A stretch of 64,000 nucleotides of DNA, from NCBI GenBank assembly GCA_965227305.1, contig OZ245740.1, positions 2,515,371 to 2,579,370 on the forward strand, written 5' to 3'. Source of the DNA: Limisphaerales bacterium. Lineage in GTDB: Bacteria > Verrucomicrobiota > Verrucomicrobiia > Limisphaerales > AAA164-E04. Shown in pieces: positions 1,079 through 41,681 of this stretch (the first letter of the stretch is position 1; every line of letters begins with the position of its first letter). Made by a program: the position numbers and the translations under genes. The notes under the pieces were generated by a model, which saw only the letters and a list, made by a program, of their open reading frames with translations, was not told where the DNA came from and made no database searches.

Positions 1079-1768
1079 CTAGCGGCCGAGGTACTTCACG
1101 ACCGCCTCCGTACGAGTCCGGACCTGGAGTTTTTCATAGATCCGACGGAGATGGGTTCGAACCGTCTCCACCCCGATGGAGAGCTCATCCGCGATTTCCT
1201 TGTAGAGGTATCCGCGAGAAAGCAACATGACAACCGATTCCTCCCGTGGACTCAGTTTCGGCAGGTCTGGATTCGTCGAAGTCGGCGGTTGAGTGTCCCC
1301 ACCAAAAGATTCAACGACGCGCCGGGCAATATAGCCCGACATCGGCGATCCCCCGGATTGCACGTCGGCAATGGCTTGAAGGATCTCCAAGGGAGCGCTT
1401 CGCTTGAGCATGTATCCCGTCGCACCGGCTTTCAGGGATTCGAACACGCGCTTGTCATCCGTGTAGGAAGTCAAGACGACAAACTGCGTTCGGGGTAACT
1501 TCGGTTTGAGTTCGCGGATGCATTCAATTCCCGTCTGCCCGGGCATTTGGATGTCCATGAGGGCCACGTCTGGTTTGTCTTCGAGTACGCCAGCCACCGC
1601 AGATTCTCCATCCGAGTAGCGGCCCACACACTCCAGTCCAGGACTCCCATTGACCAGGAGTGCCAGGCTTTCCGCAAATGACGCATCATCATCGGCGATG
1701 GTGACTCGAACTAGTTCCGTTGATGCTTCCATTCCTATGTCACTCAGCCTACCGCCATTGAGGCCCAT
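1079..1768 (-). CDS. NarL/FixJ-type response regulator (REC + LuxR HTH)
   Basis: The REC domain has the context DVALMDIQMPG, and the C-terminal HTH reads SPREESVVMLLSRGYLYKEIADELSIGVETVRTHLRRIYEKL. It lies immediately downstream of the HisKA_3 kinase at 1824..4892. The true start may be the internal Met at 1732. Confidence 0.9.
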   Translation of the reverse strand: MGLNGGRLSDIGMEASTELVRVTIADDDASFAESLALLVNGSPGLECVGRYSDGESAVAGVLEDKPDVALMDIQMPGQTGIECIRELKPKLPRTQFVVLTSYTDDKRVFESLKAGATGYMLKRSAPLEILQAIADVQSGGSPMSGYIARRVVESFGGDTQPPTSTNPDLPKLSPREESVVMLLSRGYLYKEIADELSIGVETVRTHLRRIYEKLQVRTRTEAVVKYLGR

Positions 1769-1823
1769 CCGGGAATCCCCTTTTTGGGGGACGCCAGCCC
1801 CCAGAACGCTCTTCGGCCCCCAT

Positions 1824-4800
1824 TCATTCCGCCACGTCCTCCACCGAAACGTTCCCTACTGACAATCGCACCGTCAATCCGTGAGACGGTCGCGGCAAGA
1901 ATTCAGCCAGCCCACCCACCCCAAGCATCCGCTCGCTCATGTTGCGAAGCCCATTTCCGGATCGTCGGGAAACGGCATCGCCCAACCCCTTACCGTCATC
2001 GCTAATTTCAACCAAGAACACATCTCGATTGGATCGCATTCGGATGCTCACCTCGGAAGCCTCGGCGTGTTTCAACACATTTGTCATCGCTTCACTAGCG
2101 GCCAAAAAGAGATTGTGCCGAACGTCCGATGCCATCTCACGAGCTTCTAGAGAAATCGGAACATCAAAACGCAGCCGAATCTCGGTGTGGCGAAAAAACT
2201 CCTCGGCATACGAACTAATATAGGCGACGAGCCCCTCCACATTGTCCATCTCCGGATTGGTTGCCCACACCACTTCATCCAAACCACGGGCTAGTTCCTG
2301 CGCACTGGAATTCACTTTAGAGGCCTGCTCGGCACCGGAACCGTCCGAATCCTTTTGAAATCGACCAGTCAACGATTGGCTCTGAAACAGGATCTGGGTC
2401 AGTTGCGCTCCCAACTTGTCGTGAATCTCGCTAGCAATACGAGCCCGTTCCTTCTCTACCGCATGGTCCCGCTCCAAGAAAACCAGCCGCCGCGTGAGTT
2501 TCACTCGGGCCGCAAGCCAAACGATGGTCCCAAACACCGCCCCAATCACCCCAACGGTCCCAATCTTAAAGGCCAGCGTCTGCCAGAAATGCGGTTCGAT
2601 CCGAATCGGAAGCGTCGCCCCAAGATCGTCCCACTCTCCGCGGGAGTCGCTGGCACGAACATGGAATCGGTACGTTCCGGGCGGCGGAGAATTATAACTC
2701 GCCGTCCGCTGTCGACCGGCATCCACCCACCCGCTATCCAGTCCCTCAAGCCGATACTGAAATCGCGTTCGCTTCGGCGACTCCAACATCACCGCAGAAA
2801 ACTCAAACGACAAGCGAGCCGGACCGGGAGGAATCCGCAACGGGTCTTGGGACGAATCGACAAGCCGGTCATCCACCCGCACTTCCTCAATATAGACATG
2901 CGGTTTCTTCGCCGATCTCGATACGGCTTCCGGATCAAAGGAAACGACATTCTCAACCATCGAAACCCACAGACGCCCATCCCGAGCTCGATGCATATTG
3001 GGTGAATAGGCCGCGGAACAGACCGAGTCCAAGAGCCCGTCATCAGGACCAAAAAGCAAACACTCGGACAAGACACCACTACTCGAAGATCGATTGAGCA
3101 CCTCCTCCCGTTTCACCCGAGCAATCCCCCCCGTGGTCGCCAACCACAGATAAGATCCCACACCGACAATCCCCCCCACCTCGTCACTTGGTAGTCCATC
3201 ACTCCTGCGGGTGGCCACGACTTGATCCCCTTTGCGAACCACAAGCCCTCGCCCCATCGTTCCCAACCAAAGCGTTCCGTCTTCATCCACGTAGAGCGCC
3301 GAAATAGCACGATGATCGAGTTGCTCCTCAAGCTCCAGGCGCGTTCCGACTCCCTCCTTCACGGACCACAAATTTCCCACCGATGTTCCTGCCCACAAAG
3401 TACCATCCGCGCTCTCAGCGAGGGAATAGATCGCATCCTCCCGGGTCTCCGCCAACACGCGTATACTCTCCCCGTCCGACGTCAAGATCCCACCGAACGC
3501 GCTCCCAAACCACATCCTCCCATCCCGGGCTTCGAGGAAACAGCGAATTTGTTGGGCCGGTTTGTCAATCGTAACCACGCCGGTGGAGCGAAGGGCACCC
3601 TGCCCATCCGCTTCATATTTCCCCAAACTTCCAGGCAACGCGGCCCAGTAGTTTCCCGACCGATCCACCACAACCGCCATCACGCCGGACTCGCGAACCT
3701 GCTCAAGCCCCCCATCACGCACCCGAAAAAGACCATCAGACTTGTTAAAAACAACGTGGCCCGATGGGTCTTCCGACACAGCCCCAACCTGCCCGGATCC
3801 TGGAGCCGTGACATTCTGAAAAATCCCTTGCTTCAATCGCGTCAGCCCGGCGACCGATGATCCGGCCCAAATAGAACCGTCCCGATCTTCAAACAACGAA
3901 ACCACCTTTCCTTTCCCGATCTGGAATCGCTCATACTCTCCATCGGGAGCCAAGCGATACACCCCCTGGTCATAGACGGCGATCCAAAGATTGCGGCGAC
4001 TGTCTTCAAGAAAGGCTCCGATCCCATACTGCTGGATCGAGAAAGGCCACGTTTGGGGTTGAGTGACCCTTCCGGGTGCCACCAACCGTGCCAATGCGCC
4101 ATATTCAGGGAGAGAACCGGATAGAAACCACAGACCGCCGTCCTTCCGAGAGTAGATGCTCTGACTCATTAGTTTCCGGTTAGAATCCATCACTTCGATT
4201 TGCCGATAGCCATCGGATCGCCAATGCACGGGAACCTCCCAATAGCAGGTGTAGAGCCCACCGGACACGGAGTCGACGGCAACCGTCGTGGACCGCCCGC
4301 TCGGTCCGGTCCTCCCGGGATCGCTCTGGAGTTTCCCGCCGTCCACGTAAAACAAGCCACCATCGGCGCCCACCCAGATTCGCCCCTCCTGGTCTTCGGC
4401 AAAGTCAAGAATCCCGTAGGAATTTACCTGACTGACATCGATCTTCGATATCTTGCCGTCCTCCATCTTCGCAATCTCGCCCCAAAGGGAGCCACTCCAC
4501 AAACACCCCCGACTGTCCACAAACAACGCCACAATCGTCCGGGCCGGCACGGCAGGGGTCGTGTAGGGCGAAAACACCTTAAACTGAATCCCATCAAACC
4601 GCGCCAGGCCCGCAGCCGTGCCGAGCCAGAGGAACCCATCGGGAGTCTGAGCAATGGAGTGCACGCCATTACGGGGCAAGCCTTCCGCCTGCCCCCAGGT
4701 TCGGATCACGTAGTCAGACCGTTCCTCCCGCTGATAAGGTTGGGTCAATCCAGAAAAACTCAACTCGTCGGCCCAAACCCTCCCGCTCGGCCAGAAGCCA

Positions 4801-4892
4801 AGCCCAAAGAGCACGGCCACGGCCAACAGCGACCGGCTCAAACGATTGAATCTAAGGCCAACAAACAAGGACACCACAGGAAGCGGCGCCAA
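1824..4892 (-). CDS. Sensor histidine kinase with periplasmic two-component-regulator propeller repeats + Y_Y_Y domain, TM, HisKA_3 and HATPase_c
   Basis: It has an N-terminal signal/TM segment and repeated Reg_prop-like blades (GFLWLGTAAGLARFDG, GTLWLGTMGRGLVV...). The Y_Y_Y motif is FQYRLEGLDSGWVDAGRQRTASYNSPPPGTYRFHVRA. The H-box is IASEIHDKLGAQLTQI and the ATPase part reads EISDDGKGL...GNGLRNMSERM. The stop is TGA. Confidence 0.9.
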   Translation of the reverse strand: MAPLPVVSLFVGLRFNRLSRSLLAVAVLFGLGFWPSGRVWADELSFSGLTQPYQREERSDYVIRTWGQAEGLPRNGVHSIAQTPDGFLWLGTAAGLARFDGIQFKVFSPYTTPAVPARTIVALFVDSRGCLWSGSLWGEIAKMEDGKISKIDVSQVNSYGILDFAEDQEGRIWVGADGGLFYVDGGKLQSDPGRTGPSGRSTTVAVDSVSGGLYTCYWEVPVHWRSDGYRQIEVMDSNRKLMSQSIYSRKDGGLWFLSGSLPEYGALARLVAPGRVTQPQTWPFSIQQYGIGAFLEDSRRNLWIAVYDQGVYRLAPDGEYERFQIGKGKVVSLFEDRDGSIWAGSSVAGLTRLKQGIFQNVTAPGSGQVGAVSEDPSGHVVFNKSDGLFRVRDGGLEQVRESGVMAVVVDRSGNYWAALPGSLGKYEADGQGALRSTGVVTIDKPAQQIRCFLEARDGRMWFGSAFGGILTSDGESIRVLAETREDAIYSLAESADGTLWAGTSVGNLWSVKEGVGTRLELEEQLDHRAISALYVDEDGTLWLGTMGRGLVVRKGDQVVATRRSDGLPSDEVGGIVGVGSYLWLATTGGIARVKREEVLNRSSSSGVLSECLLFGPDDGLLDSVCSAAYSPNMHRARDGRLWVSMVENVVSFDPEAVSRSAKKPHVYIEEVRVDDRLVDSSQDPLRIPPGPARLSFEFSAVMLESPKRTRFQYRLEGLDSGWVDAGRQRTASYNSPPPGTYRFHVRASDSRGEWDDLGATLPIRIEPHFWQTLAFKIGTVGVIGAVFGTIVWLAARVKLTRRLVFLERDHAVEKERARIASEIHDKLGAQLTQILFQSQSLTGRFQKDSDGSGAEQASKVNSSAQELARGLDEVVWATNPEMDNVEGLVAYISSYAEEFFRHTEIRLRFDVPISLEAREMASDVRHNLFLAASEAMTNVLKHAEASEVSIRMRSNRDVFLVEISDDGKGLGDAVSRRSGNGLRNMSERMLGVGGLAEFLPRPSHGLTVRLSVGNVSVEDVAE

Positions 4893-8642: not shown

Positions 8643-11600
8643 CTATGGAATACTTTGGCCCAGCGCCGCTCCACCTTCACGAATCACGACATAGCCATCG
8701 TCTCCGGCCGAGGCGAGATCCATTCCATCTGGAGAAAACGCCACTTCGACCACATAGCTCTCGTGCTCCTGAAAGAACCCCTTTGCCTCCATCTCCTCCA
8801 GATCCCAGAGTCGTAGCAGGTTATCCATACTACCGGACGCTAAGGTTTTTCCACTCGGCGAGAATTCAACGTCATAGACCCAACCGGTATGCGCTAAGAA
8901 CTGAGCTCTTTCCACAAACGATTCCGTATCCCAGATCTTGATTTTCGAATCAAACCCGCCCGTAGCGAGAAGACGGCCGTCTCCGGAAATGGCCATCGAC
9001 ATGATCGTCTTGTCATGCACCCCCACCAAGCCTCCTCGATCCCGAATTTCAACGCCGCCTGACGAAATCTGCATTCGCCACCAGCGCAGATCTCCCGCCG
9101 CGTTACCGGCAACCAACAAATAATACGGCGATGCATCAGGCCCATTATCAGCGATCCGTTTCAACACCAACCGGCTCATTCCCTCACCCGGATCCCGAGC
9201 CCGCCATAACTCCGTTCCTGCCGCCAGATCAATGAGACGCAAGGGCAGTTCTCGAGACTTCACCGCTGCCACGGCCAACTCTTCATCGAAAGCAAATGGT
9301 CCCAATGGATCCCCTTGCTGACCCTGCCAGACCAGTTCCGATTCAGAACTCTCACTCGGGCGCCAGCGGTATACCCCGTTGAAACCTCCCCCAGCCAGTG
9401 ACTGCCCATCGGCACTGTAACGAAAATCGTAAATCACTTCCGGTGCCTCCAGCCGTTGCCGCAGTTCCCGGGTCGATTTATCAAACACCTCCAATGCCGT
9501 CTTCCCATCCAGCGCAATAAGACACACCGCCAGCGAGGCTCCATCCGGAGAGAAACTAAGATGGGAGCTCTCGCCAAACCCAGTGCGAAACCCACCGGGA
9601 CGGCCTAGCTCAGTCGTGTCCCAGAACTTGATTTTCCCTTCAACGCCCGAGGTGATCAACCACTTCTCGTCCGCCGTCAAGGTCATGCCCGTAACGGCTC
9701 GCGAGTGTCCTGGGACCGGATCCGTGAGTGCCCCGGTCATGAGATCCAGGACCCGAATGGTATTCTTCTCATCGGCGATATACAAACGGTCCCCGGTCGT
9801 ATTGAGACATATCGGCGCCATCGATGAAACTGCGTCTCTAACCAAGGGACCGTTGTCATCCTGCCGCAATTTCCCAGTCGTGGTTTCGAACACCTTCACT
9901 TTGCTATCCGTCGCACCCGCCGTAATGACCGAGTCACCGTCAGGACTCAACACGAATGCGCCAATATCGAGAACACGTTGCCCATCCCGGCTCAAATGGG
10001 GATGCCATCGAGCGACCAGATCACGGGTTTGGAAATCCCAAACCATGATTTCCTGATGACATGAGCCAACCACATAGCGCTGATCCGGCGTAAAAAACAC
10101 CCGTTGTACCCAGTGCGTTTCCGCAAAGGCAGGCTCCAGAATCTCATGTCCGTTGGACTCGGGATGCCAAACTCCCACCGCTCCGGCAATTCCTCCATGC
10201 ACGATCCATTCACCGTCTGGTGAGAATCTCGCCCACATCTCATGCGGATTCCCCGGGTAACGGTTCTCAATTTCACCCGCTGCGGAGAAAACCACCAAAT
10301 CCGTACAACTCGCCACCAAGCGTTGCAAATCCGGAGAAAACGTCAGGTCCCGCGTGAGATGCTCTCCACCGATCGGCTCCATCTTCAAAACGGTTCGGGT
10401 ATCGACATCCACCCAAATGAAATCGCTTCCATACCCGGCGGCCACCAGAAGGTTCCGTTCGGGGTCCAAAGCAATCTCATATACGCCCGCATCGAACGTT
10501 AGCGCCGGAACGGACCGAAACCGCGCGAGTTCTGCCTGTAGAAAATACCACTCGAACTCTCGCCGATCCACACCGTCCGCGGCAGCGGCATCTGGCCCAT
10601 GACGTGATATTAATTCGTCCACTCGCTGCAAATCCGTCTGCTCACGCGCCTGCAAAGCCGCCGTCATATCCGCAATATACAGGCGCTGATTCAACGACTC
10701 GTTGGAAGCCGCCAAGTCATCGGCATACTCTGCCAAGAGGAGCACGCCTATAACAACCAGACCCAAGACGCCAACTATTCCGAAACAGAGCGATCGATGC
10801 CGTCCAACAAACTTACGAGCGAAATACCCCCAACCAGCCCGCCTAGCCAACACGGGTCGTTGCTCCAAATAAGCCATAATGTCCCCCCTCAACGCTTCCG
10901 CAGATGGGTATCGCAAGTCCCGATCTTTCTCGATCGCCTTCATAACAATGGCATCCACGTCGGCATCCAGCCGATCCGCAAACCCACTCGCCGCGGTTCC
11001 GCTCCCAACATTCGAATCCCGTTTCAAAGACCGCAAACGCCGTGAGGGAACCACCGGCACACGCTCAGAGAGCATCCGCAGCATCCCTGCATATCCATCC
11101 GCCATCAGCATCTCTTGATCAAACGGTAATGCCCCGGTTACCAGCTCGTACAGGATTGTACCCAAGGAATAAACATCTGCTCGGGTGTCCACATCCCCAC
11201 GCGCGATATCCGCCTGTTCCGGACTCATATAAGCAGGAGTTCCCAACAACTGACTCTCCATCGTCAGCGCTGCGTCTCCGGAACGCGACTCAATCGCCTT
11301 GGCGATACCAAAATCAATAATCTTAGGGATGAGCCGGCCATCCGTCTCCACAACGAGAATATTGCTGGGCTTCAAATCCCGGTGCACCACCCCTTTCTGA
11401 TGCGCGTGCGTCACACCGCGGCAAACTTCCGCAAAAAGAGCCAAACGTGCCCTAAGATCCAAGGACCGACTCCGCACCACTTCCATCAGAGTCTCGCCTT
11501 GAATCAACTCCATGACGAAATAAGCGTCCCCCCGTGGGGTCACCCCAGCGTCGAACACTTTTGCGATCGAGGGATGGTTCAGCACGGCCAAGGTTTGCCG

Positions 11601-11966
11601 TTCCAACTCAAAACGCTTCAGGATCTGATCCGAACTCGTCGTCCCCTTAAGCACCTTGACCGCGACTTCTCGTTTCAGGGGTACTCGTTGAGTCCCTCGA
11701 TACACCCTTCCCATCCCGCCCTCGGCAATCAGTTCCAAATCTTCAATCCCCGGAACGTCCTCCGCAGCCAGCTCTCGGGTGGATCCCTCGGATTCCCCCA
11801 AGGCTCCCGGCGCAATGTCGGCACAAAATTGAGCAAAGGAATCCTTGAGTCGATCATCCGCATGGAACGCACCGCGCAGGAACGCCGCCCGCTCGGCACT
11901 GGTCGCCAGAGTCTCGGAATCGCGAATCAGTCGCTCAACGCGCGGCTTTTGAGAATCGTCCAACAT
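8643..11966 (-). CDS. Ser/Thr protein kinase with TM segment and C-terminal WD40 beta-propeller repeats
   Basis: The Hanks kinase motifs are VAVKVLK, HRDLKPSNILV, DFGIAK and GTPAYMSPEQ. A TM segment (FGIVGVLGLVVIGVLLLA) follows, then many WD-like repeats (e.g. SMDNLLRLWD, FDSKIKIWD, VEGKIKFWD). Its start lies 1 nt after the stop of the sigma gene at 11968..12726. Confidence 0.9.
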   Translation of the reverse strand: MLDDSQKPRVERLIRDSETLATSAERAAFLRGAFHADDRLKDSFAQFCADIAPGALGESEGSTRELAAEDVPGIEDLELIAEGGMGRVYRGTQRVPLKREVAVKVLKGTTSSDQILKRFELERQTLAVLNHPSIAKVFDAGVTPRGDAYFVMELIQGETLMEVVRSRSLDLRARLALFAEVCRGVTHAHQKGVVHRDLKPSNILVVETDGRLIPKIIDFGIAKAIESRSGDAALTMESQLLGTPAYMSPEQADIARGDVDTRADVYSLGTILYELVTGALPFDQEMLMADGYAGMLRMLSERVPVVPSRRLRSLKRDSNVGSGTAASGFADRLDADVDAIVMKAIEKDRDLRYPSAEALRGDIMAYLEQRPVLARRAGWGYFARKFVGRHRSLCFGIVGVLGLVVIGVLLLAEYADDLAASNESLNQRLYIADMTAALQAREQTDLQRVDELISRHGPDAAAADGVDRREFEWYFLQAELARFRSVPALTFDAGVYEIALDPERNLLVAAGYGSDFIWVDVDTRTVLKMEPIGGEHLTRDLTFSPDLQRLVASCTDLVVFSAAGEIENRYPGNPHEMWARFSPDGEWIVHGGIAGAVGVWHPESNGHEILEPAFAETHWVQRVFFTPDQRYVVGSCHQEIMVWDFQTRDLVARWHPHLSRDGQRVLDIGAFVLSPDGDSVITAGATDSKVKVFETTTGKLRQDDNGPLVRDAVSSMAPICLNTTGDRLYIADEKNTIRVLDLMTGALTDPVPGHSRAVTGMTLTADEKWLITSGVEGKIKFWDTTELGRPGGFRTGFGESSHLSFSPDGASLAVCLIALDGKTALEVFDKSTRELRQRLEAPEVIYDFRYSADGQSLAGGGFNGVYRWRPSESSESELVWQGQQGDPLGPFAFDEELAVAAVKSRELPLRLIDLAAGTELWRARDPGEGMSRLVLKRIADNGPDASPYYLLVAGNAAGDLRWWRMQISSGGVEIRDRGGLVGVHDKTIMSMAISGDGRLLATGGFDSKIKIWDTESFVERAQFLAHTGWVYDVEFSPSGKTLASGSMDNLLRLWDLEEMEAKGFFQEHESYVVEVAFSPDGMDLASAGDDGYVVIREGGAALGQSIP

Positions 11967-34315: not shown

Positions 34316-34834
34316 CTAGATGCGGTTATCGATTTCCAAAGGGACATGGCGCACAACTTCTTCCAGCGGAATCAGAGGAATCCGACGTTCACGGTTGGGA
34401 GCTGCCCATCGTTCGAATTCACCGTCGTCGTTTCTCCGTTGTTGTTCGCTGAGTTCCACGCTTGTTTCCCCGTTAGGGTGACCCGTCTCGACGGGCCCCT
34501 CCACTTCCGACACCCTGACCTCCGTATTCGGTTTGTTGAGTAGGTTCGGAAAATTCAATAGTCCCCAGGCAAGCACCAAGAGTCCCGCAACCAAGGCCGC
34601 CAGGCTTCCCCACGCAACTCCCGGTCGCGCCGGAAGATCCAACTCAACTGGATTCCGGGAGATTGCGATGGTCTCAAAACTCGCCCGTCCGAAATGATTC
34701 AGCTCTGCGAACGCTTCGACCACACCCCGACACGCGGCACAAGCATTCAAGTGCGCTTCGATTGGTTCACTAGCATTGATATCAAGCTCTCCGTCGACAT
34801 AGGCGACGAGCTCAGATTCCTTTGGGCATGACAT
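34316..34834 (-). CDS. Anti-sigma factor, zf-HC2 type, single TM
   Basis: It starts MSCPKESELVAYVDGELD...HLNACAACRGVV, which carries the H-x3-C-x2-C motif, and has the TM segment WGSLAALVAGLLVLAWGLL. The start at 34834 overlaps the sigma gene end; the track start at 34930 was rejected. Confidence 0.75.
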   Translation of the reverse strand: MSCPKESELVAYVDGELDINASEPIEAHLNACAACRGVVEAFAELNHFGRASFETIAISRNPVELDLPARPGVAWGSLAALVAGLLVLAWGLLNFPNLLNKPNTEVRVSEVEGPVETGHPNGETSVELSEQQRRNDDGEFERWAAPNRERRIPLIPLEEVVRHVPLEIDNRI

Positions 34835-35351
34835 TTTGCTCCTTTGGTAATTCTTCCTGCGTATGAAGGAGGCGACGAAGCCGGGATTTCGCTTCGAACA
34901 ACGTCGCCTTGACCGTACCCACCGAAACATCGAGGGCCTTCGCGATCTCTGGGTAACTTAAGTCTTCTAAAAAATGCAAGGTGATCATCTCGCGCTGACG
35001 AGACGGCAACGAACGGACGGAATCCAGCAGCTGGCGATTGCGCTCTTGCCTCATCAAAGACCGGTCCGCCGAAGGCAAACATTCCGGAAACAAGATTGGA
35101 TCCCCCTCGTCCAGTTTACGGAGCCGAGACCGGTTTACCCGCGTCGCAGTCCGAACCAGAATTCGGTAGCTCCAACTAAAAAAAGACGACTCGCCACGAA
35201 ACTTGCCGAAGGCTCGATAGGCTGCCACCAAGGTCTCTTGAACCACATCTTCAACATCCATCTTGGAAGCGCATAGGACACTGGCCGCCCGGCGTAGCGG
35301 GGCATAGGCGGCGGCGGCCTCGGATTCAAAGCTGCGTCTCTCGGCGTTCAT
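34812..35351 (-). CDS. ECF sigma factor (RpoE-like)
   Basis: Region 2 reads DVVQETLVAAYRAFGKF and region 4 reads LPSRQREMITLHFLEDLSYPEIAKALDVSVGTVKATLFEAKSRL. Confidence 0.9.
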   Translation of the reverse strand: MNAERRSFESEAAAAYAPLRRAASVLCASKMDVEDVVQETLVAAYRAFGKFRGESSFFSWSYRILVRTATRVNRSRLRKLDEGDPILFPECLPSADRSLMRQERNRQLLDSVRSLPSRQREMITLHFLEDLSYPEIAKALDVSVGTVKATLFEAKSRLRRLLHTQEELPKEQNVMPKGI

Positions 35352-35544: not shown

Positions 35545-35718
35545 ATGGAGGTTTACACACACCGTTTCAAAATCATGAGATTGCCATATACATTGTTGCC
35601 GCTGGAAGGAACCAGCCGACGTCGTCGTTCTGACATGTATACCGGATCGGATTCCCATCGGCTCGAACATATTGAAGAACATGATTCCGAACCCGAGGAC
35701 CGGGAGGCAAACAGGTAG
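35545..35718 (+). CDS. Small ORF (57 aa; or 47 aa from ATG 35575), highly charged, uncertain
   Basis: My translation is MEVYTHRFKIMRLPYTLLPLEGTSRRRRSDMYTGSDSHRLEHIEEHDSEPEDREANR*. It is below the ORF-track cutoff and is followed 26 nt later by a strong intrinsic terminator. It could instead be a non-coding transcript. Confidence 0.2.
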   Translation: MEVYTHRFKIMRLPYTLLPLEGTSRRRRSDMYTGSDSHRLEHIEEHDSEPEDREANR

Positions 35719-35743
35719 GCCTATTTTCACTGGCTTTTGAAGA

Positions 35744-35775
35744 CCCTGTTTGCCTGAGTGCAAACAGGGTTTTTT
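35744..35775 (+). terminator. Rho-independent terminator
   Basis: The stem is CCCTGTTTGC (35744-35753) with loop CTGAGT and GCAAACAGGG (35760-35769). It is a 10-bp perfect stem followed by TTTTTT (35770-35775). Confidence 0.65.
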
Positions 35776-35819: not shown

Positions 35820-35892
35820 AGCGGGGTGAAGGAGCTTCGGGTGAGATTCATAAGCTCAACCCCTGCGGGTGCAACTCCCGCCCCCGCGACCA
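35820..35892 (+). tRNA. Aberrant tRNA-Met/initiator-like gene (anticodon CAT), CCA encoded
   Basis: The 5' end AGCGGGGTG and 3' end CCCCGCGACCA resemble the initiator tRNA ends, with an A1/G72 mismatch. The T-arm is GCGGG-TGCAACT-CCCGC and the anticodon loop is TTCATAA. However, the D-arm is a mini-hairpin (GAAG-GAG-CTTC) and the anticodon helix is extended and bulged (GGGTGAG / CTCA-A-CCC). Confidence 0.4.
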
Positions 35893-35899
35893 CAATACC

Positions 35900-35986
35900 G
35901 AGGCGTGATCCATCTGCCGGACTGTAAATCCGGCGTCTTGAAACAAGGTGGAAGCCAGACGATTGGAGCATTACCAACACGCCTCA
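35900..35986 (+). ncRNA. tRNA-Tyr-like structured element (anticodon-arm mimic with GTA), non-canonical
   Basis: An 8-bp closing stem pairs GAGGCGTG with CACGCCTC, followed by A. The perfect anticodon-type arm is GCCGGA-CTGTAAA-TCCGGC, and the variable-arm-like hairpin is CTTG-AAA-CAAG. There is no D-arm and the T-arm is poor (TTGG-AGCATTA-CCAA). Confidence 0.3.
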
Positions 35987-35995
35987 GTGATTTAT

Positions 35996-36071
35996 GGACT
36001 CGTAGCTCAATCAGCAGAGCCACCCGTTGTCTGCGGGAAGGTTGAGGGTGCAACTCCCTTCGAGTCCGCCA
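35996..36071 (+). tRNA. tRNA-Asp (GTC) with A18/G55 elbow, CCA encoded
   Basis: The parse is GGACTCG TA GCTC AATCAGCA GAGC C ACCCG TTGTCTG CGGGA AGGTT GAGGG TGCAACT CCCTT CGAGTCC G CCA. The acceptor and D stems are perfect and the discriminator is G73. Oddities are an A27/A43 mismatch and T37. Confidence 0.7.
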
Positions 36072-36076
36072 GTTTC

Positions 36077-36112
36077 CCCTTGGGGGTTCGGTTGAAAGCG
36101 AACCCCCAAGGG
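36077..36112 (+). other. Perfect 14-bp hairpin in the spacer of the tRNA array
   Basis: CCCTTGGGGGTTCG, loop GTTGAAAG, CGAACCCCCAAGGG. It is followed by ATGCAAC, which resembles the array's T-loop (TGCAACT) without a 3' stem. Confidence 0.6.
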
Positions 36113-36137
36113 ATGCAACCAAGAGAATTGAATTTAA

Positions 36138-36215
36138 GTCCGTGAATGCAAAGCAGCTCGAGCACTCTGCCCTTCAAGCAGAACCTAGTCGGTGCGAGTC
36201 CGATCACGGATACCA
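36138..36215 (+). tRNA. tRNA-Glu-like (TTC in canonical register) with C33 and A18/G55 elbow, CCA encoded
   Basis: The parse is GTCCGTG AA TGC(A) AAGCAGCTCG (A)GCA C TCTGC CCTTCAA GCAGA ACCTA GTCGG TGCGAGT CCGAT CACGGAT A CCA. The 1:72 pair is a G-T wobble, and loop position 33 is C rather than U. Confidence 0.6.
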
Positions 36216-36221
36216 GATTTT

Positions 36222-36296
36222 GTCCGCGTAGCTCAGATAGATTAGAGCGCCGCCCTACGAAGGCGGAGGTCGCAGGTGCGAGTCCTGCCGCGGATA
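36222..36296 (+). tRNA. tRNA-Arg (ACG) with A18/G55 elbow, no encoded CCA
   Basis: The parse is GTCCGCG TA GCTC AGATAGATTA GAGC G CCGCC CTACGAA GGCGG AGGTC GCAGG TGCGAGT CCTGC CGCGGAT A. All stems are perfect apart from a G1-T72 wobble. A20 and A73 are present. Confidence 0.8.
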
Positions 36297-36302
36297 CTTT
36301 AT

Positions 36303-36377
36303 GGTGGTCATGTTGTAATAGTAGCATCACGCCCTGTGACGGCGTCCGTGCCGGTGCGAATCCGGTTGGCCACCCCA
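36303..36377 (+). tRNA. tRNA-His (GTG) with encoded G-1, C73, A18/G55 elbow, CCA encoded
   Basis: The parse is G(-1) GTGGTCA TG TTGT AATAGTA GCAT C ACGCC CTGTGAC GGCGT CCGT GCCGG TGCGAAT CCGGT TGGCCAC C CCA. The 5' and 3' ends match the classic bacterial tRNA-His pattern GGTGG...CCACCCCA. Confidence 0.8.
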
Positions 36378-36446
36378 ATTTCTTATCAACCAGCGGTGAC
36401 AAGAGGATCGACAAGAATGACGCCTAGCGTTCTTCCATTCTACATT

Positions 36447-36527
36447 CTGCAGTTTGCATTGCCTCCCCCGAGAGCGAAGCCAGGCAAACAATGCAAAAGT
36501 TAAATTGAAAACTGCAAACTGCAAAAG
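36447..36527. repeat. TTTGCAG-heptamer / TTTGCATT inverted-repeat element, locus A
   Basis: On the minus strand it reads TTTTGCAGTTTGCAGTTTTCAATTTAACTTTTGCATTG...CAATGCAAA. The inverted repeat is TTTGCATTG (36453-36461) and CAATGCAAA (36489-36497). The architecture matches that at 57791-57867. Confidence 0.55.
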
Positions 36528-36609
36528 TTGGGGAACCCAGGAGAATGTCCCCGTTACTGATGGTCGCCATTACGACTCACACCAATGCCTCGTCGCACTC
36601 GGTCTTGCT

Positions 36610-37758
36610 TCATTCCGAGTCGCCGGGCAGTTCCGAGAATGTCGCCGTATAGATCTGTTGATCATCCTCACCCGAGGCTCGGTCAAAAACCCCTCGCCAA
36701 AAGAGCTGAAGGACCTCTCCGTTTGGATCCACCGCCATCGCCGGACCGAACGCGCTACCCGGCGGGTTCTCGCCAAACAAATTCACCGAACGCCATTCAT
36801 CATCTCCCTGAAGCAACGCGAAGGAAAGCGCCGGATTCCCCGGAGTCTTCCCTCGGGGTTGATCGCCCCGCCATCCGACCAGCAACCCGCCTCCCCATGC
36901 CACCGCTCCCGGAGTCCAGGCGGATTGGGCCTTCGGAATGATCGGGAGTGGGAGTTGGAAGGTGGACCACGTTTCTCCATCGAAAAATCCATGATACAAC
37001 AAAGGATCGCCGGGATCGCTATTCGGCCCCAAAAACGTTAGCGATCCGGTCCCCCGCCAGACGGCGTACAAGCGCTCACCGACCGGTGCTAGCGTGGGAC
37101 CAGAGGTCCCGTTGGCGTGAACAATATTGATACTGTGACTCGGCTTCCCCAACCACACTCCAGCCTGCGGATCAAATACCTTGTAGTTGATCCAATGATG
37201 ATTGCCCGGAACCGTTCCCACCGTGACGTTGCCATAAGCCCTCCAGCTCAAGTACACCAAACCGTTGAAAACCGCTAAGCCTGGCGGCCCAGCACTGTAG
37301 GGGCCGGGAACGACACCGGCATATTGGATTTCCCCATCCTGACGCATCGAGGCGAAATACGCCGCGGGATCCCCCGTCCCGCTAAATAGATTGCCTTCGC
37401 CGTGCCAAGCAATAAACAGCTGATCCGACGAGGCCGCCAATACGGGACCAAACATACTCCTCCCGGACAAGACCTGCGGCTCCGTCCAAACACCCGCTTC
37501 CCGTGTCGCCAAATAGAGCTTCTGATCATCTTCGGCCGCCCCGGGCGAACCGGAACCACGCCAGCTCAAGTAAGTTTTCCCATTGAAAACCGCGGCCGAT
37601 GGTGCAAAGGCACTGCGAGCCTGAGGTACGTATTCCACGGCCGAGTGCGCCAAGCCAGCCCCCAACCACAGCCCCGCAACGAGAAGGCCAAGCGTCCGAC
37701 TCCAAATCGACCCGTTCGATATGGCCAAAGAATTTGGAATGTGATATTGCATGCCCAT
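36610..37758 (-). CDS. Secreted six-repeat protein (W-R/H-G motif), probable beta-propeller
   Basis: It has a signal/TM segment followed by six ~55-aa repeats with cores YLSWRGSG, FIAWHGEG, YLSWRAYG, YAVWRGTG, LLVGWRGD and LQLFWRGV. Each core is followed by an aromatic-rich strand. Confidence 0.7.
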   Translation of the reverse strand: MGMQYHIPNSLAISNGSIWSRTLGLLVAGLWLGAGLAHSAVEYVPQARSAFAPSAAVFNGKTYLSWRGSGSPGAAEDDQKLYLATREAGVWTEPQVLSGRSMFGPVLAASSDQLFIAWHGEGNLFSGTGDPAAYFASMRQDGEIQYAGVVPGPYSAGPPGLAVFNGLVYLSWRAYGNVTVGTVPGNHHWINYKVFDPQAGVWLGKPSHSINIVHANGTSGPTLAPVGERLYAVWRGTGSLTFLGPNSDPGDPLLYHGFFDGETWSTFQLPLPIIPKAQSAWTPGAVAWGGGLLVGWRGDQPRGKTPGNPALSFALLQGDDEWRSVNLFGENPPGSAFGPAMAVDPNGEVLQLFWRGVFDRASGEDDQQIYTATFSELPGDSE

Positions 37759-37806: not shown

Positions 37807-40800
37807 ATGATTCCAAGCTTCGGACAACATCAAACAGCAATGCGGGCCAAGACATTCCAATCCAGGAAAGAACGCGTCCCGTCCCTTCCGCCCCGCCCAG
37901 TCGGAACGGTGTCGCCGACCGACACGAGATACCGCCGGTCGCCCCTGATATTCACCGCACCGTTTGGCAATCTGGCCACGTCTCTCTTTGCACTCTGTGC
38001 ACTCATCTCGGTCCTGACCACGGCGCCCTGCACGCAGGCAGCGGAAAGAGCCGCTCCGTATCGCGTCACGAATTGGCAGGTTGAGGATGGTCTCCCCCAG
38101 AATACGATTCAGAAGATCACCCAGACATCGGACGGCTACCTCTGGTTGGCAACCACACATGACGTGATTCGATTCGACGGTCTTGAATTCCGAATTCTCG
38201 CTGGTGACGATTTAAGCAACTTCGACTTCCGCAGTGTTCGGTGTCTCTTTGGCGACCAGGATGGGGCTCTTTGGATCGGGACGAATCAAGGGCTAATTCG
38301 GTATCAGGAAGGCGAACTCAGTTGGATCGACGGCCCCGAAGAATTCGCGCCAATCAAGATCAACAACATCTGTCAGGCACCGAACGGCCGTATTTATATG
38401 ACCTCAAAACTCGCTGTGTTCGAGTTCAGAGACGAGGTGCTCGTTCCCATCACCGAAGAGGGTCCAGAATCACCGGACGGCGGTTGGGTCATCACAGCGG
38501 ACGCTAAGAATCGGGTCTGGGTCAGTTGGGGGAACACGCTCTATCGGCGCGAAAACGACCAATGGTCGAGAGAGATCCAATTCCCCCGCATTATAAACTA
38601 CATTTCAAGCGATAGCGATGGAACCATTTGGTGTGGGCTCAATGCCGGTTACTTCGCTTGGTTGAAGCCCGGCGGTAAGGAAAACATCAAGGTATATCCC
38701 GGGGGCTCCATTTTTGACGTCGCCCAGAATCAAAAGGGAGATGTCTTCTTCCGCGTTTCCGACCGCCTTCATCGCTTTCCAGATGGCGAAAACGTTCCGC
38801 TTTTCCTTCAGAACGGGGAACCCGTTGAGCGGATACAGATCATTTTTCAAGACCGAGAAAAAAACCTCTGGTTGGGAACCAAGGGCAAAGGCCTGGTGCT
38901 CTTAGAACCGCAACCATTGGCAACCTACTCCACCGAAGCAGGCCTCCCCTATCCCGAAGTCAAAACCATCGCGCAATTCGATGCAGACTGTCTCTGGCTA
39001 GGAACAACGGGCGGAGGCCTGGCAAAGCTTCAAGGTGAAACCTTTCACCCCATCGAGTTCACGGGCTATTCGAATATCGGCGCGATACAGCGATCAAGGG
39101 ATGGCCAACTTTGGGTTGGAACCTACGGCAATCACCTCTGGCACATCGATCAGGGCCAGCCCACCATCGAAACCCGCAGCCGAGCCCTCACCGGCCGCTG
39201 CCTCTTTGAAGACATTGAAGGAGCCCTGTGGGTTGGCGGAGAAGGCATGGGAGCGGAGCGCCTGACGTCGAATCAAGTCGTCCGACTCGATACGGGCAGC
39301 GGATTGGTTTCCGACAATGTTCGCTGTTTCGCCCAGGATCAATCGAACGCGATCTGGATCGGGACGGATCGCGGCCTGCACCGCTATTGGAACAACAAAG
39401 TCGAAGCCTTCACGACACACGAGGGTCTACGAGACGCACGCGTTCAATCCCTGTTTGTCGACTCCAGCGGCACCCTTTGGATCGGGACCGAAGCTCGCGG
39501 GTTGACGCGGTTCCAAAACGGAAGTTTCGATACGATCCGTACGGAACAAGGTTTCTTCAGCGAGAGCGTCGCTCAGATGCTAGAGGATGACCTCGGATAC
39601 CTTTGGCTCGGCACCAATCGGCGGCTCTTCCGCACCCAGTTGGACGAGCTCAACCGAGCCTTCGATCAAGGGGAGGATAAACTCATCGGAAAATCGTTCG
39701 GCAAAGAGGACGGGATGCGCAGCCAAGAATGCACGGGAGGCTTTCAACCCAACTGCCTCAAAGCGTCTGATGGGATTCTGTGGTTCTGCACCGCGGACGG
39801 TGTGGTTCGCGCAGATCCCGCCTCCGTCCAAGAGAAAGCCGTCTTGCCCGACATTCACATTGATCTCTTCCTCGCCGACGGCGAACCGGTTCGAAAGGAG
39901 AACGCATCAGACTCCGAGACGTTTGATCTCGTTCCCAAGTTGGGAGTCTACGATTCCTTCGGAGCTTCTTCCGTTGCTCAGGATTTGAAAGAGAATCGGT
40001 TCGTCGTCCCTCCCGGAGCGGGACGTCTTGAGATTCACTATACTGGGATCAACTTCACGGCACCGACCAGCGTGCACTACCGCTATCGACTGAGCAATTA
40101 CGATACCGACTGGACAGTGGCGGGTTCACAAAGCATCGCTGCCTACACCCAAGTCGCTCCCGGAACCTACGAATTTGAGGTTCAAGCAGGAAACAGCGAA
40201 GGTAAATTCAACCCCGTTTCGAGGAAGCTCGCCTTTGTGGTGCGGCCGACGTTGATTCAAAGCGGGTGGTTTCGCGTCAGCGTCGGCCTCGGCGTCTGTG
40301 CCGCGCTGGTAGCGTTGACCTACGGCCCCATTCAGCGCCGCCGACAGTTGGCAAAGATGCGAATCCAAATCGCTCGCGATCTCCACGATGAAGTGGGGTC
40401 CAACTTGGGTTCCATTTCGCTCTATAGCCAACTCGCCCGGGAAAAAGCCGGGGAAACCTCACCTGCTGTGGAAGAGTTTGACGAAATCACCCGAACGATC
40501 CACCGAACCGCCCAATCTCTTCGAGACGTCATCTGGTTCACAAATCCAGAATTCGATACCTTACGGGGGATGCTCCAACAGATGGAAGACACCGCCAATC
40601 GGATGTTGGTAGGCAAGCAAATCGCCTTCAAGGCGGATTGTCCCGTATCCGATCGCCGGCTTTCCTTGAATTTCCGGCGTCAAGTGTTCCTCATCTTTCG
40701 AGAGATCACCCACAATATCCTCAAACACTCCCAAGCGAGTCACGTCAAGATCACCATCTTCGCTCGAAGAAACGTTCTCTCCCTCAAAATTGCCGACGAC

Positions 40801-40947
40801 GGTGTTGGGTTTGATCCGAACAACGGACGCCGCGGAAATGGGCTAAACAACATGCAACAACGGGCAGAGGAATTGAAGGGGCGGGTCACGTTCCATTCCC
40901 AACCCGGGCAGGGTTCAACCATCCTTTTTGAAATCCCCATGACGTGA
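37807..40947 (+). CDS. Sensor histidine kinase (Reg_prop repeats + Y_Y_Y + TM + HisKA_3 + HATPase_c), paralog of 1824..4892
   Basis: The blades include GYLWLATTHDVIRFDG, GALWIGTNQGLIRY and GTLWIGTEARGLTRF. The Y_Y_Y motif is YRYRLSNYDTDWTVAGSQSIAAYTQVAPGTYEFEVQA. The H-box is IARDLHDEVGSNLGSI and the ATPase part reads IADDGVGF...GNGLNNMQQRA. The exact start is uncertain. Confidence 0.9.
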   Translation: MIPSFGQHQTAMRAKTFQSRKERVPSLPPRPVGTVSPTDTRYRRSPLIFTAPFGNLATSLFALCALISVLTTAPCTQAAERAAPYRVTNWQVEDGLPQNTIQKITQTSDGYLWLATTHDVIRFDGLEFRILAGDDLSNFDFRSVRCLFGDQDGALWIGTNQGLIRYQEGELSWIDGPEEFAPIKINNICQAPNGRIYMTSKLAVFEFRDEVLVPITEEGPESPDGGWVITADAKNRVWVSWGNTLYRRENDQWSREIQFPRIINYISSDSDGTIWCGLNAGYFAWLKPGGKENIKVYPGGSIFDVAQNQKGDVFFRVSDRLHRFPDGENVPLFLQNGEPVERIQIIFQDREKNLWLGTKGKGLVLLEPQPLATYSTEAGLPYPEVKTIAQFDADCLWLGTTGGGLAKLQGETFHPIEFTGYSNIGAIQRSRDGQLWVGTYGNHLWHIDQGQPTIETRSRALTGRCLFEDIEGALWVGGEGMGAERLTSNQVVRLDTGSGLVSDNVRCFAQDQSNAIWIGTDRGLHRYWNNKVEAFTTHEGLRDARVQSLFVDSSGTLWIGTEARGLTRFQNGSFDTIRTEQGFFSESVAQMLEDDLGYLWLGTNRRLFRTQLDELNRAFDQGEDKLIGKSFGKEDGMRSQECTGGFQPNCLKASDGILWFCTADGVVRADPASVQEKAVLPDIHIDLFLADGEPVRKENASDSETFDLVPKLGVYDSFGASSVAQDLKENRFVVPPGAGRLEIHYTGINFTAPTSVHYRYRLSNYDTDWTVAGSQSIAAYTQVAPGTYEFEVQAGNSEGKFNPVSRKLAFVVRPTLIQSGWFRVSVGLGVCAALVALTYGPIQRRRQLAKMRIQIARDLHDEVGSNLGSISLYSQLAREKAGETSPAVEEFDEITRTIHRTAQSLRDVIWFTNPEFDTLRGMLQQMEDTANRMLVGKQIAFKADCPVSDRRLSLNFRRQVFLIFREITHNILKHSQASHVKITIFARRNVLSLKIADDGVGFDPNNGRRGNGLNNMQQRAEELKGRVTFHSQPGQGSTILFEIPMT

Positions 40948-41681
40948 ATACGTCCGTTGTCGCTCGTTGCATTTGCCCTCAGGATCGTTTCGAACGGGCA
41001 ATGGCATTAGCGACAATAGACGAGATTATTCCGACCAGGGAACGGGGCAAAGTATCGGTGTGGGCCGTAGAAGACAGCGCCTCCTTCCGATCTGCAGTGG
41101 TGCAAGTCTTGAATTCGATCTCAGGCATCCGTTGCACCCAATCATTCCCAACGATGGACGTCGCTCTCGAGTCGCTCGGCAAGGGCAGTCCACCAGACGT
41201 CTTGCTGATGGACATTCATTTGCCCGGGAGTTCCGGCGTGGACAGCGTCATCAAGATTCGATCCGAGTTACCGGACCTCCCCATCCTCTTGCTAACCATC
41301 AATGAAGATCATTCATCGATCATGCGAGTCATCTGTGCAGGCGCCCTGGGCTACCTCGTAAAAACAGCCTCCGTGAATACCATCAAAAGCGCAATCTACG
41401 AGGTCAATCACGGAGAAGCCGACATGCCCCCACAAATCGCCCGATCGGTACAAACGCTGTTTGACGACTGCCCACCGAAAAACTCTCGAGATCGCCTCAG
41501 CTCACAGCAACAACAAACCCTTACGCTGCTTACCGAAGGAAAGAACCGTTCTGAGATTGCTGAAATCCTCAACTGCGAAGCCACCGCGCTGGGAAGGGAC
41601 ATCCGAACCCTTTACGGCAAACTCCACAAACACAGTCGAAGCCCCGCAGCCGCTAAACTGATTCGGAACAAGACGTTCTGA
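40944..41681 (+). CDS. NarL/LuxR-type response regulator
   Basis: The REC domain reads VSVWAVEDSASF...DVLLMDIHLPGSSG and the HTH reads LSSQQQQTLTLLTEGKNRSEIAEILNCEATALGRDIRTLYGKL. The GTG start overlaps the kinase stop (GTGA). Confidence 0.85.
   Translation: MNTSVVARCICPQDRFERAMALATIDEIIPTRERGKVSVWAVEDSASFRSAVVQVLNSISGIRCTQSFPTMDVALESLGKGSPPDVLLMDIHLPGSSGVDSVIKIRSELPDLPILLLTINEDHSSIMRVICAGALGYLVKTASVNTIKSAIYEVNHGEADMPPQIARSVQTLFDDCPPKNSRDRLSSQQQQTLTLLTEGKNRSEIAEILNCEATALGRDIRTLYGKLHKHSRSPAAAKLIRNKTF

Follow-up and report, generated by a model that had tools for sequence, protein, structure and literature searches.

Long tRNA arrays (L-arrays) can hold up to 43 genes, are horizontally spread, Verrucomicrobia included, and consist of supernumerary tRNA genes found near rtcB and homing endonuclease genes (PMC8421152). 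According to the same source, the L-array of Anabaena sp. PCC 7120 (the trn operon) is silent until translation is impaired and is co-regulated with rtcB. L-arrays, the rtc/rsr operon, the tRNA clusters of phages and the generic T-loop are already known, each separately. Here we describe an array of six tRNA or tRNA-like genes found in a window of 64 kb (the whole stretch analysed, from a Limisphaerales bacterium, the host being described as a soil Verrucomicrobiota chromosome), in which the standard members carry A18/G55 in place of G18/U55. Comparison with related loci indicates that this array is probably a reduced copy of large L-array-like tRNA islands that contain RtcB and Ro60 genes, with an elbow of riboswitch type and a putative role as a back-up pool.

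Textbooks give G18, G19, pseudouridine 55 (Ψ55) and C56 as nearly invariant in cytoplasmic tRNA. According to PMC7912444, no tRNA modification is more universally conserved than Ψ55. The T-loops of FMN and cobalamin riboswitches follow the consensus UGNRA (88.7%) or CGNRA, and the tRNA sequence UUCRA is singled out as the exception (10.1101/2022.12.26.521914).

Six genes with an altered elbow

The array lies at 35820-36377 of the window, head-to-tail on the + strand, within an intergenic gap of 1258 bp between the ORF boundaries 35351 and 36610. The sequence-only reading had placed six tRNA-like genes on the + strand of a gap of about 1.26 kb, and both position and number were borne out. ARAGORN called only three tRNA genes in the whole window (Asp, Arg and His), all in this gap, and the Rfam tRNA model RF00005 called the same three with 47.5, 61.5 and 43.4 bits, respectively (gathering threshold of 29). 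No match to RF00005 was found for the Met-like, Tyr-like and Glu-like elements, even at E<=10. Model scores had been named in that reading as a check; Asp, Arg and His score above the tRNA threshold, the other three below it.

The Rfam consensus T arm GGUUCgAaUCC aligns column by column to GGUGCGAGUCC, GGUGCAACUCC and GGUGCGAAUCC in Asp, Arg and His, and the GG of the consensus D-loop aligns to AG in all of them. Since these alignments place G at the U55 column and A at the G18 column, the register of G55 and A18 is settled, as had been proposed together with the retention of G19:C56, with positions 18 and 19 assigned from the D-loop alignment and not from structure. The canonical G18/U55 inner pair is missing from all three model-aligned tRNAs. 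G19, C56, T54 and A58 are retained in Asp, Arg, His and the Glu-like gene, and the same G55 T-loop is also present in the Met-like and Glu-like elements. To the genes initially listed with G55, the Tyr-like element can be added, which has a variant T-loop with A54/U58 in place of U54-A58. The motif GGTGCRANTCC occurs 5 times in the window, always within the array, against 0.39 occurrences expected by chance, and the canonical GGTTCRANTCC is found once, which is the chance level. Isomerisation to pseudouridine is not possible for a G, and the array RNAs should therefore be unable to carry Ψ55.

The window loops, reading UGCRA, resemble the riboswitch T-loops, where position 2 is G and an A intercalates between positions 4 and 5 and bonds the sugar edge of that G. 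The difference is that the riboswitch rule was described for non-tRNA RNAs, whereas here the loop lies inside otherwise normal tRNAs with 19:56 kept. By this analogy, the array tRNAs may have moved from the tRNA-specific to the generic T-loop rule, and a three-dimensional fold is plausible in which A18 would intercalate between 57 and 58 and bond the sugar edge of G55. The 19:56 pair stays Watson-Crick, being swapped to U:A or C:G in some members of the family.

The three members called by both programs are well preserved. tRNA-Asp(GUC) (35996..36071, + strand, as all six) has the D-loop AATCAGCA (A18 G19), the T-loop TGCAACT (G55 C56), G73 and an encoded CCA, with 20 of its 21 stem pairs intact. 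The unusual anticodon loop UUGUCUG (U37) and an A27-A43 mismatch are both kept in homologues at 88-92% identity. In tRNA-Arg(ACG) (36222..36297) all 21 pairs are intact; the D-loop is AGATAGATTA (A18 G19 A20), the T-loop is TGCGAGT (G55), the discriminator base is A73, and CTT replaces CCA. Its homologues are 90-94% identical, with the anticodon GCG in 25/25 metagenome loci and an encoded CCA in 24/25. ACG is the substrate anticodon of TadA and the standard bacterial Arg form, and its presence in the window against GCG in all homologues could result either from domestication or from chance. tRNA-His(GUG) occupies 36303..36377 (G-1 at 36303; model call at 36304-36377), with the encoded G-1 opposite C73, the D-loop AATAGTA (A18 G19), the T-loop TGCGAAT (G55), an encoded CCA and 20/21 stem pairs, the exception being a U10.U24 mismatch. 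Homologues of 87-92% identity are found after Arg or Arg-Thr in L130, L132, L141, L150 and others (L numbers denote the compared loci). The identity marks are intact in the three genes (G-1:C73 in His; A20, C35, G36 and A73 in Arg; GUC and G73 in Asp), and CCA is encoded in 4/6 genes (Met-like, Asp, Glu-like and His). Of these, G-1:C73 in His, A20 and A73 in Arg, G73 in Asp and the four encoded CCA ends had been read correctly from the sequence.

The count of four clean cloverleafs given at that time stands for Asp, Arg and His, and has to be corrected for the non-canonical tRNA-Glu(UUC) (36138..36215), which was missed by ARAGORN and Rfam and is recognised by homologues and covariation. It has G1.U72, A8 and A9, and a D stem of only 3 bp under a D loop of 12 nt (AAAGCAGCTCGA). 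The anticodon loop is CCUUCAA, with C33, the T-loop is TGCGAGT (G55), and A73 is followed by an encoded CCA. Its 23 homologues are 85-92% identical, and those checked for position directly precede tRNA-Arg. In an alignment of 17 sequences, 99.1% of the cells of the proposed cloverleaf are paired and 5 pairs are changed on both sides, and 0/500 shuffles equal this.

The Met-like element with a CAU anticodon (35820..35892) is called oddly by ARAGORN at a lowered threshold and was recognised by its fold and homologues. It has an A1.G72 mismatch, the D stem GAAG/CTTC and, on an extended anticodon helix, the loop UUCAUAA; A73 and CCA are encoded at its 3' end. The T-loop TGCAACT (G55) attributed to it earlier is there, as part of an element whose D loop is only the 3-nt GAG. 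BLAST found no homologues of either the Met-like or the Tyr-like element, and those described here come from motif and profile searches. Relatives of the Met-like element are present in L144 and L141 and in the IMG/VR loci L005 and L112/L127, likeness to the islands being otherwise mainly at the 3' end. Its D stem covaries (GAAG/CTTC, GAAT/ATTC, GGTT/AACC) round the invariant GAG loop, and the 1:72 mismatch is A.G in the window, U.U in L144 and C.A in L112. Of the features of initiator tRNA-fMet, it has the 1:72 mismatch and lacks the three consecutive G:C pairs at the bottom of the anticodon stem; its D arm has 4 bp closed by the GAG loop.

The Tyr-like element with a GUA anticodon (35900..35989) is supported by profile search and covariation. 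It has the anticodon loop CUGUAAA, no D arm, a long variable arm and A73 followed by GTG. The T arm consists of a 4-bp stem and the loop AGCATTA (A54, G55, C56, U58), with AGCGTTA also found among homologues. An interpretation of the variable region as a simple hairpin was overturned by folding and comparison: positions 10-16 of the 5' linker pair with 47-53, inside the variable-arm loop, and this extra helix together with the V stem (36-39:58-61) gives a pseudoknotted core. Covariation is seen in the extra helix (window TCCATCT/AGGTGGA; L144 TCCGGC/GTCGGA; L141 TCCGATT/AAATCGGA; L102 CCCATC/GATGGG) and in the variable stem (GTCT/AGAC vs GCCA/TGGC), and a conserved AG follows the 47-53 strand. 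In the acceptor, anticodon and 4-bp T stems, 95.6% of the cells are paired and 7 pairs are changed on both sides, which is equalled by 0/500 shuffles. In L144 and L141 its homologue immediately precedes Asp, and a further one was found in the IMG/VR locus L102. The invariant G8-C79 and the 4-bp T stem permit an 8/4 acceptor/T arrangement, and a possible 8-bp acceptor, a 4-bp T stem and a long variable arm recall allo-tRNAs, which have 8/4 or 9/3 branches (PMC5389517), as the missing D arm recalls mitochondrial tRNAs without that arm (PMC7609411). It differs from both since the strand at the D position pairs into the variable-arm loop as a pseudoknot, with GUA and A73.

Judged by sequence comparison, the six elements are members of conserved families, and the three imperfect ones are conserved non-canonical designs. 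Other identities tried for the array gap were rejected: none of the low-threshold Rfam matches (L10 leader, PyrR, YrlA, group II, Tymo tRNA-like) comes near its threshold. For YrlA/Y RNA (RF02553, threshold of 69 bits), the best score in the window is 17.7 bits, from a match running across two adjacent genes, and no TROVE protein was found among the scanned ORFs of the window.

Related islands and the spread of the elbow

A search of metagenomes for the G55 T-loop, which the sequence-only reading had proposed, was productive. The Arg-type pattern found 25 soil or peat contigs (L130-L154), and a pattern with the D loop left free (GTAGCTCA N5-12 GAGC N24-30 GGTGCRANTCC) matched at least 120 IMG/VR contigs. 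The islands have up to 17 ARAGORN-called tRNAs per locus (L153), with more by Rfam, and L158 has 16 by ARAGORN plus further Rfam matches. Among 101 distinct island tRNAs, 97 have G55 and 97 an encoded CCA. The window Asp, Glu-like, Arg and His genes have 85-94% identity with island homologues, and two syntenic blocks, Met-like/Tyr-like/Asp and Glu-like/Arg/(Thr)/His, are common to window and islands, the order of the first being also found in L144 and L141. The interval between Asp and the Glu-like gene is about 2.1 kb long in L144 and holds Pro, Arg-UCU, Asn, Ile, Phe and RtcB. Where full islands hold several more tRNAs and an RtcB gene, the window has a spacer of 66 nt between its two blocks, containing a perfect 14-bp hairpin (36077..36112, + strand; minimum free energy of -31 kcal/mol, z = -5.0) with no homologue in the compared loci.

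Between the tRNA blocks, the islands contain 3-4 RtcB paralogues, Ro60 (TROVE + vWA), an HNH endonuclease, R2K ATP-grasp, SPFH and a HEAT-repeat protein. The flank of L149 is ordinary cellular DNA (Na/H exchanger, KdpD-like kinase, LuxR-type regulator, epoxide hydrolase, isochorismatase). The island RtcB has relatives 85-94% identical under the NCBI names Roseimicrobium sp., Verrucomicrobiae and Verrucomicrobiota bacterium, with Chthoniobacteraceae also among the names, and shares 74% identity with the RtcB protein from Chthoniobacter flavus Ellin428. In L158, a 292-kb contig of a metagenome-assembled genome (MAG), the island comprises two RtcB genes, Ro60, YdjM, a transposase, an HNH gene and about 20 tRNA genes, most of them G55. 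C. flavus (L159) and the MAG L165 have a plain rtcR-rsr-YrlA-rtcB operon with no tRNA genes, the YrlA RNAs being confirmed by the model (74.5 and 71.5 bits, respectively). The MAG L163 holds two RtcB genes and two stray array-type tRNAs, so small remnants like that of the window occur elsewhere. An Acido-Lenti-1 RNA (11648-11693, 53.3 bits, threshold of 37) was also found on the opposite strand between the two RtcB genes of this Verrucomicrobiota MAG.

With the L-arrays of PMC8421152, the islands share many same-strand tRNAs with short spacers, mostly encoded CCA, a patchy distribution and the proximity of rtcB and HNH genes, and they differ in being fused with Ro60, Y-RNA modules and 3-4 RtcB paralogues. 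The patchiness is seen at a syntenic locus of the MAG L121, the one relative found by a contig scan via the neighbouring histidine kinase (57% protein identity, plus a paralogue). The genes for the 382-aa protein, histidine kinase and response regulator next to the array are there in the same order with no tRNA, and a pseudopilin-like gene is at the place of the array. No tRNA was found either in the rtc operons of L159 and L165, and the islands carry HNH and transposase genes. This agrees with the earlier suggestion of a specialised or acquired tRNA set: the family is patchy and array-specific, and its islands lie in other contigs.

The islands also resemble the rtcR-rsr-YrlA-rtcB(-rtcA) operon of Salmonella and C. 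flavus, as they hold Ro60, Y-RNA-like modules and RtcB of the same families. The plain operon differs by having no tRNA genes and a YrlA with a canonical elbow, and the window has none of these genes. RtcR was not found in the island stretches read. The tRNA mimics of Y RNAs keep the canonical GGTTCGA T-loop and GG D-loop in both the island L158 (5650-6200) and C. flavus. Y-RNA-like or tRNA-like modules with a canonical elbow were observed between the G55 tRNAs and ydjM/Ro60 in L158 (5650-6200), L153 (~9001-9074), L131, L142 and L149. A GGGCCG...GATTATC motif is found ahead of each module, ARAGORN labels some of them as 'tRNA-SeC(tca)' or 'Leu(caa)', and none reaches the YrlA threshold.

Two other island tRNAs are peculiar. 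A 92-nt tRNA-Ile(UAU) is present in L140 (4143-4234), L144 (1082-1173), L153 (4520-4611) and L158 (13837-13928); its D loop is 5 nt long (AAAGA), the extra arm is long, and the T-loop reads AGCRTTA. The UAU anticodon is unusual in bacteria, where AUA is normally read by lysidine-modified CAU. The loci L134-L158 contain a second type of GUG tRNA (e.g. L158 5545-5620; CAGGAT...TTCCTGACCA), which is without the usual histidine identity mark because it has A73 and no G-1:C73; the window His belongs to the other type.

ARAGORN called 536 tRNAs in the matched IMG/VR loci, among the matches listed. The TTC T-loop occurs in these with the GG D-loop in 337 and with AG in 2, and TGC occurs with AG in 144 and with GG in 14. 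The canonical tRNAs of the same loci serve as an internal control for this 18-55 covariation. In 510 distinct tRNAs, from the IMG/VR matches listed and the metagenome loci, the combinations are TTC/GG (255), TTC/AG (3), TGC/AG (173) and TGC/GG (17), and nearly all of the last 17 (e.g. AGG-AG-TA) also have AG at the 18-19 place. A18/G55 recurs over almost all isoacceptor types. Some IMG/VR loci are almost wholly of this kind (L080 with 18/18, L031 with 14/15, L112 with 16/19), and L127 carries RtcB, as the islands do. The viral label of these contigs is that of the database itself, which PHROGs scans of L031, L127 and L102 did not bear out or refute.

The outer pair also covaries in the islands, A56 (TGA..) being found with U19 (AT) and G56 (TGG..) with C19 (AC). 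Orthologous Arg-UCU genes show a compensated switch of 19:56, with GAATATATCA/TGAGAAT in L131 vs GAATACATCA/TGGAAGT in L144, and the 54:58 pair is A:U in several island Ile, Ala, Gly and Glu genes. Such compensated changes of tertiary pairs are hard to explain otherwise, which argues that the island RNAs fold as tRNAs under selection. The claim that the covariation reflects selection and not decay is strengthened by its recurrence in hundreds of independent tRNAs and by the compensated stems of the window. As a side observation, 19:56 is swapped to U:A, C:G or U:G in Arg-UCU, Arg-UCG, Pro-UGG and Leu genes (L131, L144, L152, L140, L153, L132, L036, L158), with T-loops such as TGAGAAT, TGGAAGT, TGGAAAT and TGTGAGT. 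Many IMG/VR contigs (L012, L013, L016, L026, L029, L034, L039) contain an initiator-type tRNA-Met with C1xA72, a GGG/CCC anticodon stem and the A18/G55 elbow (D loop AGTAGAA, T-loop TGCGACT).

BLAST matches in cultured phages and plasmids (~75-85% identity, generic tRNA) do not belong to this class, and all the inspected loci (DSS3_MAL1, Rctr197k, Atu_ph07, Mycolicibacterium pCBMA213_1, Pseudarthrobacter pACHL01 and Sphingopyxis pMC4) have canonical TTC/GG elbows. Since two actinobacterial plasmid arrays and two cultured phages are canonical, A18/G55 marks a subset. No mention of A18:G55 in tRNA was found in a full-text literature search, most subscription journals being outside its reach. Reviews on T-loop modification, the elbow and non-canonical tRNAs, and the L-array paper, gave no mention of it on targeted reading; G55 is absent from the review of non-canonical tRNAs, and T-loops, G18 and U55 from the L-array paper (PMC8421152). 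The A18:G55 tRNAs, the 19:56 swaps, the fusion of an array with Ro60, Y RNAs and multiple RtcB genes, and the rewired Met, Tyr and Glu members are apparently undescribed. The abundance in IMG/VR, the much larger islands linked to RNA repair and the conserved design of the three imperfect members go beyond what the sequence-only reading had noticed.

Origin and possible role of the array

The interpretation of the array as a reduced copy of the islands is supported by the homology and gene order common to both, by the covariation at 18:55, 19:56 and the stems, and by the intact identity marks. The array RNAs would be L-shaped, and they are expected to be processed and charged by host enzymes. 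By analogy with the Anabaena L-array, and because full islands are physically linked to RNA-repair genes, they may form a supernumerary or back-up pool for translational stress or tRNA damage. The window copy can be either a domesticated remnant or a slowly decaying copy, since there are no repair genes, about 2 kb of the island middle is gone, two genes are without CCA, and the Arg anticodon is ACG. Several observations weigh against our interpretation. RtcB, Ro60 (TROVE) and HNH or homing endonuclease genes were not found by Pfam among the scanned larger ORFs of the window. With six genes and no accessory genes, the array is below L-array length, and the two actinobacterial plasmid L-arrays with canonical elbows indicate that the link between L-arrays and this elbow is not general. 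Arg ends in ACTT and the Tyr-like gene in AGTG instead of an encoded CCA, and the window Met-like element departs from its homologues in U32 and in an A.G mismatch that closes the anticodon arm. The GCG-to-ACG change could be a sign that the Arg gene is the housekeeping one. The 18-55 association in the 510 distinct tRNAs (Fisher p = 2e-99) is uncorrected for phylogeny, with related sequences counted.

Some of these points would fit a decaying, non-functional remnant of an island, whose genes are pseudogenes without disabling mutations yet. Only 6 of more than 20 genes are left, the segment of five tRNAs and rtcB has given way to the short spacer, the window Met-like and His genes have mismatches, and stray single genes also occur in L163. 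We consider this unlikely, because the substitutions relative to the nearest homologues (6-12%) mostly keep pairing in Arg, Asp and His, and the changes in the acceptor stem and extra helix of the Tyr-like gene are compensated. With a CCA-adding enzyme present, CCA need not be encoded, and its absence in two genes is tolerable in that case. If, instead, all tRNAs of the organism or clade had A18/G55, the array would be part of the housekeeping set. The standard ACG anticodon of Arg and the three intact canonical tRNAs (Asp, Arg and His) agree with this, but such a lineage-wide trait is quite unlikely: the Y-RNA mimics keep UUCGA/GG in L158 and C. flavus, YrlA, present also in L165, is a TruB substrate in Salmonella (PMC4201824), the family is absent at the L121 site and round rtcB in L159 and L165, with only stray genes in L163, and the island tRNAs accompany HNH and transposase genes. 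The canonical elbows of Y RNAs in the same islands suggest that the housekeeping tRNAs of the host are canonical.

The abundance of A18/G55 in IMG/VR, with loci composed almost only of such tRNAs, raises the question of a prophage leftover, a phage-derived tRNA set kept, or once used, against a tRNA-targeting defence. IMG/VR contigs with mixed or nearly all A18/G55 tRNAs, at least one with RtcB and an endonuclease nearby, do resemble phage tRNA clusters, and RtcB and HNH are common genes of phage tRNA regions. This origin is nevertheless very improbable for the array, as no phage, integrase or transposase domain was found by Pfam among the scanned larger ORFs of the window, the closest homologues have ordinary cellular flanks, related islands lie in large MAG contigs, the viral label is taken as given for loci such as L127, which has RtcB like the islands, and the two cultured phages and two plasmid arrays are canonical. 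It is scarcely credible that the array encodes tRNA-like RNAs acting outside translation, for example as ribotoxin decoys or sponges, or as partners or substrates of RtcB and Ro60. Three of six members are far from a cloverleaf, Ro60 and Y-RNA-like modules are present in the islands, and a sponge function was raised for L-array tRNAs in PMC8421152; on the other side, the marks of chargeable tRNAs (anticodon loops, discriminator bases, G-1:C73, CCA ends) are kept, and the YrlA model score falls far below threshold.

Returning to the reduced island copy, a broader reading appears doubtful to us: the A18:G55 elbow, with freely swapped 19:56 and rewired Met, Tyr and Glu members, would define a parallel tRNA pool in Verrucomicrobiota and many phages, set apart from the housekeeping tRNAs at the one surface met by TruB, elbow readers and possibly toxins. 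It would be serviced by dedicated RtcB paralogues and Ro60/Y RNAs as a self-contained, transferable translation-rescue cassette, the window holding a domesticated fragment. Insulation of the array tRNAs from TruB and their use by a tRNA-dependent enzyme, both raised in the sequence-only reading, may be imagined, the former since a G is not open to pseudouridylation.

The data point to a whole class of otherwise normal, apparently chargeable tRNAs with a riboswitch-type elbow, represented by hundreds of different sequences from bacterial islands and from phage contigs. If this class is confirmed, an elbow unable to carry Ψ55 is acceptable in nature and is the favoured form in mobile tRNA sets, which would offer a natural test bed for the contribution of Ψ55, TruB and elbow readers, and tRNA arrays that move horizontally would be in physical linkage with the RtcB/Ro60 RNA-repair machinery. 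Standard tRNA finders miss conserved members of such sets (3/6 here), and the rewired Tyr-like and Met-like scaffolds may be a possible chassis for orthogonal translation.

Neighbourhood of the array

The window is a typical Verrucomicrobiota-like chromosome stretch. Its larger ORFs are ordinary PVC-type chromosomal genes according to Pfam (ECF sigma/anti-sigma factors, histidine kinases, DUF1501/DUF1800 and beta-lactamase-fold proteins). The array gap is bordered on the left by an ECF sigma factor gene (34812-35351, - strand) and on the right by a 382-aa ORF with no Pfam match (36610-37758, - strand), whose protein had no match in the metagenome scan.

Just upstream of the array, a 47-codon ORF (MRLPYTLLPLEGTSRRRRSDMYTG...) at 35576-35719 is followed by a strong terminator-like hairpin at 35739-35774 (15 pairs and a T run). 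Transcription from upstream may end there, in which case the array would have a unit of its own beginning after the hairpin. In the spacer behind tRNA-His (36430-36530), the words TGCAAA/TTTGCA recur and there is an imperfect inverted repeat (GTTTGCATTGCCT...AGGCAAACAATGCAAA), which could be a terminator common to the array and the convergent gene of the 382-aa protein. A Reg_prop/Y_Y_Y histidine kinase paired with a LuxR-type response regulator occurs twice in the window, at 1079-4892 and 37807-41681; the two pairs are paralogous, and one adjoins the array.

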